Part shown: positions 24,201-33,303 of the stretch, one piece after another
How positions within the stretch are numbered: the stretch's first letter is position 1
How the letters are laid out: every line of letters begins with the position of its first letter
NCBI RefSeq assembly: GCF_054482525.1
Contig: NZ_CM137006.1
Length of the DNA: 64,000 nt
Reading direction: 5' to 3' (one strand)
Notes under the pieces: model-generated
What the model was told of the DNA's origin: nothing
The model's input: the letters and a program-made list of their open reading frames with translations, nothing else
Database searches by the model: none
Position numbers and translations under genes: made by a program

Positions 24201-24775
24201 ACCCGCTCACACCAGCCGAGTACCCACCACGGCCCCTGCGGACTGTTCGTCGCCAGATAACGATGCGGACTCAGGCGAAGCTCTTCCGGCAGCGCCTGCC
24301 AGAGTGCGGCCAGCCGGTGACCTTCATCCAGTTTCGCCACGCCGCCACGCACCAGCCAGAGTGACTCGCTGCGGCTGTAACCGTCCTCACCGGGAAACAG
24401 GTGCTCAAAATACAGGCTCCTGCCGCCGTTATCACTGAGTATCAGTGTGTTATCGCGCAGCTGTAAGCGGATATCCGCGGGCATTTTCCAGCCGGGGCCG
24501 AGGCTCCCCACCGGCGCGGGCGTTTTTGTCCGGTAACTGCTGTAGGTGCGGGAGAGGATGAACGGCAGCGGGCCGGGCAGGGCAAGGTCGGTTTCGCCGG
24601 GAAGGACCTTCGCACCGAGCAGCGGATTGACCGGATGGCCGGACGTCACCCCGCCGGGGCACACCGAACAGGCCACGCCGGTGGGGGCACCGATGCGCAC
24701 CCCGGCTGAACCCTGAACAATGCTACCGCCATACTGCGTCATGTCGCCCTGACGCGCCGCCGGTTTTCCGCTCAT
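21260..24775 (-). CDS. rhsC: Rhs-family protein, N-terminal domain and YD-repeat core (RhsC-like), truncated by an in-frame TAG
   Basis: 1171-aa [32 protein letters not shown]... with many YD repeats, ending ...CAEYDEWGN; position between ybfA and ybgA matches rhsC. Confidence 0.85.
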
Positions 24776-24996: not shown

Positions 24997-25018
24997 CAAT
25001 GTATTCAGAACTCAGCAA

Positions 25019-25225
25019 TCAGTAAAAATCACCAGTTGCCTTTTCTGCCTGATCCATCCACACCGGTTTCTCGCTGGTTTTCGACCAGACGCGGTGCAGG
25101 TAGCTGTAAAAGCGGGCGCGGTCTTTCCAGAAAAGCATGAAAGGCAGCGCCAGAACGCCCGCTGCAACCGCATAAGTACGGCGTAAAAAGATAAGCCATG
25201 CAGGATATTCTCTGTAGAGTTCCAT
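25019..25225 (-). CDS. ybfA: DUF2517-family small protein
   Basis: 68-aa ORF upstream of the Rhs gene, as in K-12. Confidence 0.75.
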
Positions 25226-25433
25226 ACTTTTCTCCCCCTTTTGTATCTACCCGGTGAATGGCACCGGAAAAATGAATTTGTTTATCTGATGAAAATAGTA
25301 CCGCCTTTTGTGTAATTTTACTACTCATCCGACCACTTATTTTTGCTTATTGATGGTTTATTTACATTCACCGTGTAATTAAGTTACATGAAAGTTAAAT
25401 TAATACTAATCATTAGTTAAATCATGGCTTTTG

Positions 25434-25464
25434 CCATTTTTATACTTTTTTTACACCCCGCCCG
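25434..25464 (+). promoter_or_regulatory. Probable KdpE operator in the kdpFABC promoter
   Basis: AT-rich tract cattttttatactttttttacaccccgcccg about 75-100 bp upstream of kdpF; resembles the KdpE site as I recall it; coordinates approximate. Confidence 0.5.
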
Positions 25465-25537
25465 CAGATTTTTGCGAAATCTTTGCAGCCAGAATTCTAC
25501 CCTTCCGGTATCACTTTTAGGCCACTGGAGGTGCACT

Positions 25538-25627
25538 GTGAGTGCAGGCGTGATAGCCGGCGTGTTGCTGGTGTTTTTATTACTGGGTTATCTGGTTTAT
25601 GCCCTGATCAATGCGGAGGCGTTCTGA
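25538..25627 (+). CDS. kdpF: K+-transporting ATPase small subunit KdpF
   Basis: 29-aa GTG-initiated [32 protein letters not shown]; stop overlaps the kdpA ATG (ATGA). Confidence 0.85.
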
Positions 25628-27300
25628 TGACTGCGCAAGGGTTCTTACTGATCGCCACGTTTTTACTGGTGTTAATGGTGCTGGCACGTCCTTTAGGCAG
25701 CGGGCTGGCGCGGCTGATTAATGACATACCTCTTCCCGGTACAGCGGGTGTTGAACGCGTACTCTTTCGTTTACCTGGCGTCTCTGACAGTGAGATGAAC
25801 TGGAAGCAGTATCTCTGTGCCATTCTCGGCCTGAACATGCTGGGGCTGGCGGTGCTGTTTTTTATGTTGCTCGGTCAGCACTATCTGCCGCTTAATCCAC
25901 AGCAGTTGCCAGGGCTGTCATGGGATCTGGCGCTGAATACCGCCGTCAGCTTTGTCACCAATACCAACTGGCAATCTTATAGCGGTGAAACCACGTTGAG
26001 CTATTTCAGCCAGATGGCGGGCTTAACGGTGCAAAACTTTCTTTCTGCCGCCAGCGGGATTGCGGTGATTTTTGCCCTCATCCGTGCGTTTACCCGCCAG
26101 AGCATGAGCACACTCGGGAATGCCTGGGTCGATCTGCTACGCATCACGTTATGGGTGCTAGTCCCTGTGGCGTTGTTGATCGCACTGTTTTTTATTCATC
26201 AAGGTGCGTTGCAAAACTTTCTGCCCTATCAGGCAGTGAATACCGTTGAAGGAGCGCAACAGCTGTTACCAATGGGTCCGGTGGCTTCTCAGGAAGCGAT
26301 CAAGATGCTCGGCACTAACGGTGGTGGCTTCTTTAATGCCAACTCGTCGCATCCGTTTGAAAACCCAACCGCACTGACCAACTTCGTGCAGATGCTGGCG
26401 ATCTTCTTGATCCCAACAGCGCTGTGCTTTGCCTTTGGTGAAGTGGCGGGCGATCGCCGCCAGGGGCGCATGTTGCTGTGGGCGATGTCAGTGATTTTTA
26501 TCATCTGCACAGGCGTGGTGATGTGGGCAGAAGTTCAGGGTAATCCGCATCTGCTGGCACTGGGCGCGGACAGCAGCATCAATATGGAAGGTAAAGAGAG
26601 TCGTTTCGGCGTGCTGGTCAGTAGCCTGTTTGCGGTCGTGACTACGGCGGCTTCCTGCGGCGCGGTGATTGCGATGCATGATTCGTTTACCGCTCTTGGT
26701 GGCATGGTGCCGATGTGGCTGATGCAAATTGGTGAAGTGGTGTTCGGCGGTGTCGGTTCTGGTCTTTACGGCATGATGCTGTTTGTCCTGCTGGCGGTGT
26801 TTATTGCCGGGCTGATGATTGGTCGTACACCGGAATATCTGGGTAAAAAAATCGACGTACGCGAGATGAAACTGACTGCACTGGCAATTCTGGTTACCCC
26901 GACGCTGGTGCTGATGGGCGCGGCGTTGGCGATGATGACCGACGCCGGACGTAGCGCCATGCTCAACCCTGGCCCGCATGGTTTTAGCGAAGTGCTGTAC
27001 GCCGTGTCATCCGCCGCTAACAACAACGGCAGCGCCTTTGCCGGATTAAGCGCCAACTCTCCGTTCTGGAACTGTTTACTGGCGTTCTGCATGTTTGTCG
27101 GTCGCTTCGGGGTGATTATCCCGGTGATGGCAATTGCCGGTTCGCTGGTGAGTAAAAAGAGCCAACCCGCCAGCTCCGGCACGCTGCCAACGCACGGCCC
27201 GCTGTTTGTTGGCCTGTTAATCGGCACCGTGTTGCTGGTTGGCGCACTGACCTTTATCCCTGCCCTGGCGCTTGGTCCGGTGGCGGAATATCTCTCCTGA
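25627..27300 (+). CDS. kdpA: K+-transporting ATPase subunit A
   Basis: 557 aa from [30 protein letters not shown]; the ORF track extends upstream in frame. Confidence 0.95.
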
Positions 27301-27322: not shown

Positions 27323-29371
27323 ATGAGTCGTAAACAACTGGCGCTATTCGAACCAACACTTGTCGTTCAGGCGCTGAAAGAAGCGGTGAAAAAATTAAAC
27401 CCGCAGGCGCAATGGCGCAATCCGGTGATGTTTATCGTCTGGATCGGCAGTCTGCTGACCACCTGTATTAGCATCGCGATGGCAAGCGGTGCGATGCCCG
27501 GCAATGCGCTGTTTAGCGCGGCCATTAGCGGTTGGCTGTGGATCACCGTACTGTTCGCTAATTTCGCCGAGGCGCTGGCAGAAGGCCGCAGTAAAGCGCA
27601 GGCCAACAGTCTGAAAGGGGTGAAAAAAACTGCCTTTGCCCGCAAGCTGCGTGAGCCGAAATATGGCGCTGCGGCGGACAAAGTTCCCGCCGATCAACTG
27701 CGTAAAGGCGATATCGTACTGGTGGAAGCTGGCGATATTATCCCCTGCGATGGTGAAGTCATTGAAGGGGGCGCATCGGTCGATGAAAGCGCCATCACCG
27801 GGGAATCGGCACCGGTGATCCGTGAATCCGGCGGCGATTTTGCCTCCGTCACTGGCGGCACGCGTATTCTTTCTGACTGGCTGGTGATTGAGTGCAGCGT
27901 TAACCCCGGCGAGACATTTCTGGATCGGATGATCGCGATGGTGGAAGGCGCGCAGCGACGCAAAACGCCGAATGAGATTGCCCTGACCATCCTGCTGATT
28001 GCCCTGACTATCGTCTTTTTACTGGCAACCGCCACGCTGTGGCCGTTTTCCGCGTGGGGCGGTAATGCAGTCAGCGTAACGGTACTGGTGGCGCTGCTGG
28101 TCTGTCTGATCCCAACCACTATTGGCGGCCTGTTGTCAGCGATCGGCGTCGCCGGGATGAGTCGGATGCTGGGCGCGAATGTGATTGCCACCAGCGGACG
28201 TGCAGTTGAAGCGGCGGGTGACGTTGACGTCCTGCTGCTGGATAAAACCGGCACCATCACACTCGGTAACCGTCAGGCGTCGGAGTTTATCCCCGCGCAG
28301 GGCGTGGATGAAAAAACGCTGGCCGACGCCGCACAACTGGCTTCGCTGGCTGATGAAACGCCGGAAGGTCGCAGTATTGTGATCCTCGCCAAGCAGCGTT
28401 TTAACCTGCGCGAGCGCGATGTGCAGTCGCTCCACGCAACCTTTGTACCGTTTACTGCGCAAAGCCGGATGAGCGGGATCAACATCGACAACCGCATGAT
28501 CCGTAAAGGTTCTGTCGATGCCATTCGCCGCCATATTGAAGCTAACGGCGGTCACTTCCCTGCCGATGTCGATCAAAAAGTCGATCAGGTTGCGCGTCAG
28601 GGGGCCACGCCGCTGGTGGTGGTGGAAGGTTCCCGTGTGCTGGGCGTTATTGCGCTGAAAGATATCGTCAAAGGCGGTATTAAAGAGCGCTTCGCCCAGC
28701 TGCGCAAAATGGGCATTAAAACGGTGATGATTACCGGCGATAACCGTCTGACTGCCGCCGCCATTGCTGCGGAAGCGGGCGTCGATGATTTTCTCGCCGA
28801 AGCGACACCGGAGGCCAAGCTGGCATTGATTCGTCAGTATCAGGCAGAAGGCCGTTTAGTGGCGATGACCGGCGACGGCACCAACGATGCTCCGGCGCTG
28901 GCGCAGGCAGATGTCGCGGTGGCGATGAACTCCGGTACTCAGGCGGCGAAAGAAGCGGGCAATATGGTGGATCTCGACTCTAACCCGACCAAGTTGATCG
29001 AGGTGGTGCACATTGGCAAACAGATGCTGATGACCCGTGGCTCGCTGACCACCTTCAGCATTGCCAACGATGTGGCGAAATACTTCGCCATTATTCCGGC
29101 GGCATTCGCGGCAACGTATCCACAGTTAAATGCGCTGAACATCATGCGCCTGCATTCGCCCGACTCCGCCATTCTCAGTGCGGTCATTTTCAACGCCTTG
29201 ATTATCGTCTTTTTGATTCCCCTGGCGTTAAAAGGCGTGAGTTATAAACCGCTTACCGCTTCTGCCATGTTGCGCCGTAACTTATGGATTTACGGTCTGG
29301 GTGGGCTGCTGGTGCCATTTATTGGTATCAAAGTCATTGATTTACTGCTGACCGTTTGCGGTCTGGTGTGA
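27323..29371 (+). CDS. kdpB: K+-transporting P-type ATPase subunit B
   Basis: 682 aa; P-type ATPase motifs DKTGTIT and [10 protein letters not shown]. Confidence 0.95.
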
Positions 29372-29379
29372 GGTTTACC

Positions 29380-29952
29380 ATGCGTGGATTACGTCCGGCA
29401 TTATCGACATTTATCTTTCTGTTATTGATTACTGGCGGCGTTTACCCGCTGCTAACCACCGCGCTGGGGCAATGGTGGTTTCCCTGGCAGGCCAACGGTT
29501 CGTTGATCCGTGAAGGTGATACGGTGCGGGGTTCAGCATTAATCGGGCAGAATTTTACTGGCAACGGCTATTTTCATGGTCGCCCGTCGGCAACGGCAGA
29601 AATGCCCTATAATCCACAGGCTTCTGGCGGGAGCAATCTGGCGGTCAGTAACCCTGAGCTGGATAAACTAATAGCCGCACGCGTTGCTGCATTACGGGCC
29701 GCTAACCCGGATGCCAGCGCGAGCGTTCCGGTTGAACTGGTGACGGCATCGGCAAGCGGGCTGGACAATAACATCACCCCGCAAGCGGCAGCCTGGCAGA
29801 TCCCACGTGTGGCGAAAGCGCGTAATCTCAGCGTTGAACAGCTCACGCAACTGATCGCAAAATACAGCCAACAACCGCTGGTGAAATATATCGGCCAGCC
29901 GGTCGTCAACATTGTCGAACTCAATCTGGCGCTGGATAAGCTTGATGAATAA
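29380..29952 (+). CDS. kdpC: K+-transporting ATPase subunit C
   Basis: 190 aa from [27 protein letters not shown]. Confidence 0.9.
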
Positions 29953-32629
29953 CGAACCCTTACGTCCCGATCCCGATCGTCTGCTGGAACAAACTGCCGC
30001 GCCGCATCGGGGGAAGCTGAAAGTTTTCTTCGGTGCCTGCGCAGGCGTCGGGAAGACCTGGGCGATGCTGGCAGAAGCCCAGCGACTGCGGGCGCAAGGG
30101 CTGGATATTGTGGTTGGCGTGGTAGAAACCCACGGGCGGAAAGATACCGCCGCAATGTTGGAAGGGCTGGCTGTTCTGCCGCCCAAACGCCAGGCGTACC
30201 GTGGGCGGCACATCAGCGAGTTTGATCTCGATGCCGCCCTCGCCCGCCGTCCGGCACTGATCTTAATGGACGAACTGGCGCACAGTAATGCGCCAGGTTC
30301 TCGTCATCCTAAACGCTGGCAGGACATCGAAGAGCTGCTGGAAGCTGGCATTGATGTTTTCACAACCGTCAACGTTCAGCATCTGGAAAGTCTGAATGAT
30401 GTGGTCAGCGGCGTCACCGGAATTCAGGTACGGGAAACCGTGCCCGATCCTTTTTTTGATGCCGCCGACGACGTAGTGCTGGTGGACTTGCCCCCGGACG
30501 ATCTGCGCCAGCGACTGAAAGAAGGCAAAGTCTATATTGCCGGGCAGGCGGAGCGCGCCATTGAACATTTTTTTCGTAAAGGTAATCTGATCGCCCTGCG
30601 CGAACTGGCACTGCGCCGTACTGCCGATCGCGTTGATGAGCAAATGCGCGCCTGGCGGGGGCATCCTGGCGAAGAGAAAGTCTGGCACACGCGCGACGCG
30701 ATCCTTTTATGCATCGGGCATAACACCGGCAGCGAAAAACTGGTCCGCGCGGCGGCGCGGCTGGCGTCACGGCTGGGAAGCGTCTGGCACGCGGTGTATG
30801 TTGAAACCCCTGCCCTGCACCGCTTACCGGAGAAAAAACGTCGGGCAATTCTCAGCGCCTTACGTCTGGCGCAGGAGCTGGGCGCAGAGACGGCAACACT
30901 TTCTGATCCAGCGGAAGAGAAAGCGGTAGTGCGTTATGCCCGTGAACATAATCTCGGCAAGATTATTCTCGGTCGCCCAGCCTCGCGCCGCTGGTGGCGT
31001 CGGGAAACGTTTGCTGACCGACTGGCGCGCATCGCCCCCGATCTCGATCAGGTGCTGGTCGCGCTTGATGAACCACCCGCCCGCACGATTAACAACGCGC
31101 CGGATAGCCGCTCTTTTAAAGACAAGTGGCGGGTACAGATTCAGGGATGCGTGGTTGCCGCCGCGTTATGCGCCGTTATCACCTTAATTGCCATGCAGTG
31201 GCTGATGGCGTTTGATGCCGCCAACCTGGTGATGCTGTATCTGCTTGGCGTGGTGGTGGTGGCACTGTTTTATGGGCGCTGGCCTTCGGTGGTCGCCACC
31301 GTCATTAATGTGGTGAGTTTCGATCTCTTTTTTATCGCCCCACGCGGCACGCTTGCCGTCTCTGATGTGCAATATCTGCTGACCTTCGCGGTGATGTTAA
31401 CCGTCGGGCTGGTGATCGGGAACCTTACTGCGGGCGTGCGTTATCAGGCGCGGGTAGCCCGTTACCGCGAGCAACGCACACGGCACTTATATGAAATGTC
31501 GAAAGCTCTGGCTGTGGGCCGCAGTCCGCAGGACATCGCCGCCACCAGCGAACAATTTATTGCCTCCACGTTTCATGCCCGCAGTCAGGTGCTGTTACCC
31601 GATGACAACGGTAAATTGCAGCCGTTAACACATCCGCAAGGAATGACGCCGTGGGACGATGCCATCGCGCAGTGGAGTTTTGATAAAGGCCTGCCTGCGG
31701 GCGCGGGCACCGACACGTTACCCGGTGTACCGTACCAGATTTTGCCGCTAAAAAGCGGCGAGAAAACCTACGGGCTGGTGGTGGTGGAACCGGGGAATCT
31801 GCGCCAGTTGATGATCCCGGAACAGCAACGCCTGCTGGAGACGTTTACGCTGTTAGTCGCCAATGCCCTTGAGCGGCTGACACTGACCGCCAGCGAAGAA
31901 CAGGCGCGGATGGCAAGCGAACGAGAACAGATCCGCAACGCCCTGCTGGCGGCGCTTTCGCATGATTTACGCACGCCGCTTACGGTGCTGTTCGGTCAGG
32001 CAGAAATCTTAACGCTCGATCTGGCGAGCGAAGGATCGCCCCACGCCCGCCAGGCCAGCGAGATTCGTCAGCATGTGCTGAACACGACCCGACTGGTGAA
32101 TAATCTACTGGATATGGCGCGAATTCAGTCCGGCGGCTTTAATTTGAAGAAAGAGTGGTTAACGCTGGAAGAAGTGGTCGGCAGCGCGCTGCAAATGCTG
32201 GAACCGGGTTTATCGTCGCCCATCAATCTTTCTCTGCCAGAACCGCTGACCTTAATCCACGTTGACGGGCCACTCTTTGAACGGGTGCTGATTAATCTGC
32301 TGGAGAACGCGGTGAAATACGCGGGGGCGCAGGCCGAAATTGGTATCAATGCCCACGTTGAGGGCGAAAATCTACAACTGGATGTCTGGGATAACGGCCC
32401 CGGTCTTCCACCAGGCCAGGAGCAGACGATATTTGATAAGTTTGCTCGCGGGAATAAAGAGTCGGCGGTACCGGGTGTAGGGCTTGGGTTGGCAATTTGT
32501 CGGGCGATAGTGGATGTACACGGCGGCACCATTACCGCATTCAACCGACCGGAAGGTGGTGCCTGTTTTCGTGTTACACTTCCCCAGCAAACAGCCCCTG
32601 AACTTGAAGAATTTCATGAGGATATGTGA
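29945..32629 (+). CDS. kdpD: Sensor histidine kinase KdpD
   Basis: 894 aa from [17 protein letters not shown]-terminal histidine kinase region (HDLRTPL H-box); overlaps the kdpC end. Confidence 0.95.
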
Positions 32630-33303
32630 CAAACGTTCTGATTGTTGAAGATGAACAGGCTATTCGTCGCTTTCTGCGCACGGCGCTGGAGGGCGACGGT
32701 ATGCGCGTCTTTGAGGCCGAAACGCTGCAACGCGGCTTGCTGGAAGCGGCAACCCGTAAGCCAGATTTGATTATTCTCGATCTCGGCCTGCCCGATGGCG
32801 ATGGAATTGAGTTTATCCGCGACCTGCGCCAGTGGAGCGCAGTGCCGGTGATTGTGCTTTCCGCACGTAGCGAAGAGAGCGACAAAATCGCCGCGCTGGA
32901 TGCCGGAGCGGATGATTACCTGAGTAAACCATTTGGCATTGGCGAATTGCAGGCCCGTCTGCGCGTCGCTTTACGCCGCCACTCTGCCACCACCACGCCC
33001 GATCCGCTGGTGAAATTTTCCAATGTTACCGTCGATTTAGCGGCTCGAGTGATCCATCGCGGTGAGGAAGAGGTGCATCTCACCCCGATTGAGTTCCGCC
33101 TGCTGGCGGTGTTGCTTAATAATGCGGGAAAAGTGCTCACCCAGCGCCAGCTCCTTAACCAGGTGTGGGGGCCAAACGCGGTCGAACACAGTCATTATTT
33201 GCGTATTTATATGGGGCATCTGCGACAAAAACTGGAACAGGATCCCGCCCGCCCACGCCATTTCATTACTGAAACCGGTATTGGGTATCGGTTTATGCTT
33301 TAG
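32626..33303 (+). CDS. kdpE: Response regulator KdpE (OmpR family)
   Basis: 225 aa; receiver domain (IILDLGLPDGDG) and winged-helix output; start overlaps the kdpD stop. Confidence 0.95.
   Translation: MTNVLIVEDEQAIRRFLRTALEGDGMRVFEAETLQRGLLEAATRKPDLIILDLGLPDGDGIEFIRDLRQWSAVPVIVLSARSEESDKIAALDAGADDYLSKPFGIGELQARLRVALRRHSATTTPDPLVKFSNVTVDLAARVIHRGEEEVHLTPIEFRLLAVLLNNAGKVLTQRQLLNQVWGPNAVEHSHYLRIYMGHLRQKLEQDPARPRHFITETGIGYRFML

Follow-up and report, generated by a model that had tools for sequence, protein, structure and literature searches.

The kdp locus in the 64,000-nt stretch of contig NZ_CM137006.1 (RefSeq assembly GCF_054482525.1; hereafter the window) raises two questions: which of the nested reading frames in front of kdpA is the first gene of the operon, and whether the compact junctions between the genes join all six of them into one translationally coupled unit. 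The activation of kdpFABC by KdpE, the role of KdpF as a subunit of the pump, and the compactness of the gene junctions have been experimentally established for decades. Every element of the predicted operon start is already known, having been annotated, structurally solved or footprinted in K-12, and the locus is almost certainly the canonical 5' end of the Escherichia coli kdpFABCDE operon.

Of 5426 complete E. coli genomes, 5423 contain a match to a 571-bp query taken from around the site, three of them at 100% identity, and kdpF and kdpA are the genes annotated beneath it. The RefSeq features of strain SCU-102, which is 100% identical over the 571-bp query, map one-to-one onto window coordinates and follow the order ybfA (on the opposite strand), kdpF, kdpA, kdpB, kdpC, kdpD, kdpE and pgm; the arrangement in K-12 MG1655 is the same, kdpF there being b4513. 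On the plus strand of the window, RefSeq places kdpF at 25538-25627 (GTG start, 29 codons plus TGA), kdpA at 25627-27300 (557 amino acids [aa]; 797.7 bits against PF03814), kdpB at 27323-29371 (682 aa), kdpC at 29380-29952 (190 aa), kdpD at 29945-32629 (894 aa) and kdpE at 32626-33303 (225 aa, GTG start), the last also identified by a family match and by a match to crystallized KdpE. Upstream of ybfA, on the minus strand, the 1171-aa open reading frame (ORF) at 21260-24775 corresponds to the core protein of an RHS element; RefSeq treats it as a pseudogene with an internal stop in SCU-102, the identical strain, and K-12 has an intact rhsC at this position.

The kdpF reading frame and its start

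The original prediction held that the operon opens with a GTG-initiated gene for a KdpF of 29 residues, and RefSeq annotation, curated protein families and solved structures all agree with it. The GTG at 25538 follows a Shine-Dalgarno sequence, GGAGG (25527-25531, plus strand), at a distance of 6 nt. The predicted protein scores 27.8 bits against Pfam PF09604 (cut-off, 21.2), 31.5 bits against TIGR02115 (cut-off, 26.85) and, over residues 1 to 29, 74.3 bits against the NCBIfam equivalog NF011332 (cut-off, 56). It is identical at 28 of 29 residues to the KdpF chains in the KdpFABC structures 6hra (6hra_D) and 5mrw, and from these near-identical chains the KdpF of the window is predicted to be physically incorporated into KdpFABC as a subunit.

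Related loci were gathered by scanning one-genome-per-species contigs with a KdpA query, which yielded 80 loci ranging from E. albertii to Betaproteobacteria, Nitrospira and Firmicutes; their upstream regions were then translated and subjected to an iterated profile search for KdpF-like ORFs. Such an ORF adjoins kdpA in all 78 loci that have upstream DNA, kdpA being at a contig edge in the other two. Loss of the 29-codon frame in related genomes had been named as the observation that would speak against the prediction; the frame, read from the homologous start, is 29 codons long in 25 of 25 Enterobacterales species, a number that, like all cross-species counts given here, comes from related species that are not phylogenetically independent and thus overstates independence. 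The start codon is GTG in 21 of these species and ATG in 4, and GGAGGT lies 5 nt upstream of it in 21. Throughout the 87 nt of kdpF, the alignment of the 25 species contains no indels, and variable columns are distributed over the three codon positions as 21, 12 and 27 of 28, which is a coding signature. Relative to the window, the codon differences in the relatives comprise 190 synonymous and 152 nonsynonymous changes.

Within E. coli, a natural kdpF allele occurs in strain SCU-301 (NZ_CP051751.1; L083:259-336), in which an in-frame deletion of 12 nt between two GGCGTG repeats results in a KdpF of 25 residues, as annotated in RefSeq, with both the GTG start and the TGATG junction with kdpA kept. 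The 90 to 95% identity band that contains this allele holds 2 of the 5423 genomes.

The mechanical list of ORFs for the window includes a 67-aa, ATG-initiated ORF at 25424-25627 whose last 29 codons are kdpF, and the original prediction had dismissed it as a spurious frame that absorbs the real gene. This proved correct, in that the 67-codon frame is unconserved and its ATG is situated upstream of the promoter. That the true product is nevertheless a 67-residue protein initiated at 25424, of which the 29 codons of kdpF merely form the C-terminal part, has a practically negligible probability. The frame is indeed open from 25424 to 25627 and begins with an ATG, and a second E. coli, as well as E. 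albertii and Citrobacter werkmanii, has an in-frame ATG (or GTG) at codon 67, the related species with an ATG there being E. albertii and C. werkmanii alone, but the ATG of the window lies upstream of both the KdpE site and the likely transcription start, such that it should be absent from the kdp mRNA, and it has no Shine-Dalgarno sequence. Across the 25 related species, moreover, the stop-to-stop frame spans only 30 to 48 codons in 11, and an in-frame start beyond codon 29 is absent from most. When the family models are applied to the 67-aa ORF, they align to its last 24 to 29 residues only, and the alignment of the leader contains indels whose lengths are not multiples of three. Because the 29-codon frame is conserved and its upstream extension is not, the 29-codon gene is, judged from sequence comparison, real, and the 67-codon ORF is an artifact.

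Translation could also begin farther downstream, at the internal GTG of codon 5 (25550), and produce a KdpF of 25 residues. The window has a GTG at this position, as do about half of the relatives, and one natural E. coli allele does encode a KdpF of that length; yet that allele arose by the 12-nt in-frame deletion and retains the GTG of codon 1. An internal GTG or TTG is missing in about half of the Enterobacterales, and where present it has a Shine-Dalgarno match of 3 to 4 nt at best. The codon-1 start, on the other hand, is found in all 25 Enterobacterales species, with GGAGGT at 5 nt in 21, and the alignment to the NCBIfam equivalog extends from residue 1 to residue 29. Initiation at codon 5 is therefore very improbable, and the GTG at 25538 is retained as the start of kdpF.

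The contention that kdpF is easily missed by ORF callers is valid for naive longest-ORF calling but not for RefSeq, which has kdpF in every E. coli record sampled: with a 211-bp query, and sampling evenly down the ranking of 5423 genomes, the gene is annotated in all 14 of the matches listed. The locus thus provides an example of a longest-ORF rule hiding a real 29-codon gene within a spurious 67-codon frame. The two are told apart immediately when related genomes are compared, and the significance of the case is mostly one of annotation hygiene.

The KdpE operator and the kdpFABC promoter

Upstream of kdpF, an AT-rich putative KdpE operator had been proposed, and it coincides with the published half-sites, TTTATA-N5-TTTACA, at 25439-25455. 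The KdpE site described by Narayanan et al. consists of the direct repeats TTTATA (S1) and TTTACA (S2) 5 bp apart, in agreement with a KdpE footprint from -72 to -50 (PMC3264566), and the half-sites are numbered -67 to -62 and -56 to -51 elsewhere (bioRxiv 10.1101/256826). In the window, S1 lies at 25439-25444 and S2, 5 bp after it, at 25450-25455, both on the plus strand; each is the published half-site, is identical in K-12 and is conserved in Enterobacterales.

The 17-bp motif has a single match in the 64-kb window, even when one mismatch is allowed. This count is weak by itself: the chance expectation is 0.21 matches, and at least one match turns up in 20 of 100 shuffled sequences. The operator assignment rests instead on identity to experimentally tested K-12 DNA and on conservation across species: the window and K-12 MG1655 are 100% identical over the segment that begins at 25424, takes in the operator and the core promoter and reaches the kdpF GTG (25538-25540), and within the 125 nt upstream of the kdpF start, conservation is strongest in the block ATTTTTATACTTTTTTTACAC, 96 to 104 nt from the start codon. 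The kdpE product of the window matches the KdpE crystallized on this DNA (4KNY and 4KFC) with an E value of about 1e-145. Given that its operator is identical to DNA bound in K-12 and that the cognate kdpE is present, binding and activation by KdpE are predicted for the window.

Two further features adjoin the operator. An inverted repeat, ATGGC-TTTT-GCCAT (25424-25437), abuts S1 and includes the ATG of the spurious 67-aa ORF; outside Escherichia and Citrobacter it is only partly conserved. In the divergent intergenic region between ybfA and kdpF, some 25 bp ahead of the KdpE site, the block ATTAGTTAAAT (25404-25423) shows conservation among Escherichia, Citrobacter, Enterobacter, Kluyvera, Phytobacter and others, and it could be part of the ybfA promoter or the site of another regulator. 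Terminator-like hairpins at 25424-25437 and, inside kdpF, at 25556-25572 were attributed to chance; neither follows the end of a gene on the same strand, and the first was also rejected as a terminator on account of its partial conservation.

A scan for sigma-70 consensus promoters from ybfA to kdpF found none, and the -10 element was for this reason placed by conservation. S2 is followed, at a distance of exactly 42 bp, by a TAnnnT hexamer in at least 24 of 26 sequences, and the alignment from S2 to this hexamer is ungapped across genera, the -35-like block included. The regular expression that anchored sequences on S2 misplaced those of Hafnia and Edwardsiella, and the alignment shows both the operator and TAnnnT in these two. 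The hexamer of the window, TACCCT (25498-25503, plus strand), is accordingly the probable -10 of the kdpFABC promoter. Upstream of it, a -35-like hexamer, TTGCGA (25472-25477, plus strand), starts 16 bp after S2 and ends 20 bp before the -10. TTGCGA or TTGCAA is found at this fixed offset from S2 in 15 of the 26 sequences, with a variant beginning in TT or TA in most of the others. At 20 bp from the -10, which is off the usual sigma-70 spacing, TTGCGA may not act as a -35; this spacing, together with the lack of a consensus promoter, fits a promoter that depends on an activator.

The TTGCGA hexamer belongs to a larger block, TTGCGAAATCTTTGCA (25472-25487), a partial palindrome (TGCnAAnnnTTnGCA) with strong conservation in Enterobacteriaceae that is located downstream of the KdpE site and upstream of the -10. 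This block is a candidate for a -35 element, a constraint on the spacer or a second protein site, and may be any of these.

From the published numbering and from the position of the -10, we infer an approximate transcription start for kdpFABC at 25506-25511 on the plus strand: the numbering would put +1 near 25506-25508, and the -10 would put it at 25509-25511; the sources of the numbering disagree by 2 bp, a promoter derivative having been used in one of them. The leader would then be about 28 to 32 nt long. With the start so placed, the operator would fall where the published numbering has it, 50 to 72 bp ahead of +1, and its position would also agree with a conserved -10 that follows S2 at 42 bp. 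A search of 25000-25900 against Rfam for leader RNAs and riboswitches returned only a miRNA match that was far below threshold.

Gene junctions and possible translational coupling

Overlaps of stop and start codons had been predicted for kdpF/kdpA, kdpC/kdpD and kdpD/kdpE, and all three are present, at 1, 8 and 4 nt, respectively. The TGA of kdpF (25625-25627) and the ATG of kdpA (25627-25629) have one base in common, in TGATG; the ATG of kdpD (29945) precedes the end of the kdpC TAA (29952) in an 8-nt overlap (ATGAATAA); and the GTG of kdpE (32626) overlaps the kdpD TGA, which ends at 32629, by the 4 nt GTGA. The other two junctions are gaps, of 22 nt between the end of the kdpA stop (27300) and the kdpB start (27323), and of 8 nt between the end of the kdpB stop (29371) and the kdpC start (29380).

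The junctions differ in how they are kept among relatives. Of the 25 Enterobacterales, 20 have the 1-nt overlap of kdpF and kdpA, 4 have abutting genes and 1 has a 1-nt gap, and the GTGA overlap of 4 nt at kdpD/kdpE is present in 17 of 21. At kdpA/kdpB, a gap of 11 to 54 nt is found in 23 of 25 and a 4-nt overlap in 2, and at kdpB/kdpC a gap of 0 to 18 nt is found in 19 of 23, and one of 61 to 183 nt in the remaining 4. For kdpC/kdpD, 23 Enterobacterales were scored: the 8-nt overlap occurs only in two other Escherichia genomes and a 4-nt overlap occurs in one; 19 of the remaining 20 have a gap of 0 to 23 nt. The long kdpB-kdpC spacers, 61 to 183 nt, are those of Yersinia and Hafnia (L011, L021, L024 and L025), and in Pectobacterium (L020) the spacer between kdpC and kdpD reaches 301 nt.

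The kdpF/kdpA junction also contains the ribosome-binding site of the downstream gene. The kdpA Shine-Dalgarno sequence, GCGGAGG (25613-25619, plus strand), coincides with codons 26 to 28 of kdpF, within the conserved Ala-Glu-x-Phe tail of the protein, and in 23 of 25 Enterobacterales the ATG of kdpA is preceded by GGAGG at a distance of 7 nt. Codon 26 is GCG in 24 of 25 species and codon 27 is GAG in all 25, whereas in the kdpA genes of the same loci GCG makes up about 35% of alanine codons and GAG about 34% of glutamate codons. Since GCG GAG is frozen against this usage, and against a background in which 27 of 28 third positions of kdpF vary, the embedded site looks selected. Another alanine codon of kdpF, codon 22, is also fairly fixed (22 of 25). 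Outside the Enterobacterales, 45 of 53 loci have GGAG within the final 18 nt of kdpF.

How far these arrangements tie the genes together is a separate matter. The structural and regulatory genes had been proposed to be coupled along the whole kdpFABCDE unit, and this claim goes further than the evidence supports: the overlaps at kdpF/kdpA, kdpC/kdpD and kdpD/kdpE are consistent with it, but kdpA/kdpB and kdpB/kdpC are gaps, the kdpC/kdpD overlap is essentially confined to Escherichia, and an overlap alone is no proof of coupling. Nothing of use on operon read-through or on coupling was found in PMC3938482 or PMC5458449. A single chain in which the translation of each of the six kdp genes depends on that of the gene preceding it would agree with overlaps at three of the five junctions, with the shortness of the two remaining gaps (22 and 8 nt), and with a read-through polycistronic kdpABCDE transcript, which is reported for E. 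coli in a passage of PMC5716572 that cites Polarek et al. 1992. Such a chain is nonetheless unlikely, given that the kdpA/kdpB and kdpB/kdpC junctions are mostly gaps in Enterobacterales, that kdpC and kdpD overlap only in Escherichia and one other genome, and that kdpA, kdpC and kdpE each have a Shine-Dalgarno sequence of their own. The kdpDE genes, moreover, reportedly have a weak promoter of their own inside kdpC, and for this reason synthesis of the regulators would not depend solely on upstream translation.

Only the kdpF/kdpA and kdpD/kdpE arrangements look selected, and because only these two are conserved, the case for coupling along the whole unit is undercut; any translational coupling is something that we infer from the arrangement of the genes. 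A further reading, slightly more probable than not, is that the Ala-Glu-x-Phe tail of KdpF is constrained both as protein and at the nucleotide level, codons 26 to 28 (GCG GAG G) being the ribosome-binding site of kdpA, that kdpF/kdpA and kdpD/kdpE are the sole selected coupling points, and that the kdpC/kdpD overlap is a recent accident specific to Escherichia.

Proposed mechanism and comparison with known systems

All of the elements are present and intact in the window, at conserved, fixed spacing, and they are identified with those of the characterized K-12 locus. Under K+ limitation, phosphorylated KdpE, a regulator of the OmpR/PhoB family, would bind TTTATA-N5-TTTACA as a dimer and, centered some 60 bp ahead of +1, would recruit RNA polymerase to a weak sigma-70 promoter with TACCCT as its -10. 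The resulting mRNA would present GGAGG and GTG on a leader of about 30 nt, and ribosomes guided by GGAGG would initiate at the GTG at 25538 and synthesize a 29-residue, single-helix KdpF that is expected to act as the stabilizing subunit seen in solved KdpFABC complexes. A ribosome ending at the UGA of kdpF would already be on the AUG of kdpA, with the kdpA Shine-Dalgarno sequence 7 nt upstream; because stop and start overlap by 1 base and this sequence lies inside kdpF, terminating kdpF ribosomes would be positioned for the kdpA start, and fresh ribosomes might also load at the embedded site. The genes kdpD and kdpE would be joined in the same manner as kdpF and kdpA, via GTGA.

The closest comparison is with K-12 itself. 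The locus, the GTG start, the length of 29 codons, the TGATG junction, and the leader and promoter of K-12 kdpF (b4513) are common to the window; in the window Thr7 is replaced by Ala, and a single synonymous change is the other difference between the two genes. The KdpE site of K-12 kdpFABC (4KNY and 4KFC), TTTATA-CTTTT-TTTACA, is identical in the window together with its flanks, and no difference was found. More broadly, the operator resembles sites of the OmpR/PhoB family, which are direct repeats with a periodicity of 10 to 11 bp placed upstream of a weak -35: the kdp half-sites are 11 bp apart, center to center, and as a further likeness to such sites their distance to the -10 is fixed in all of the genera examined. 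Unlike ompF and ompC, which have tandem arrays of sites, the kdp operator has one recognition site, built of AT-rich 6-mers.
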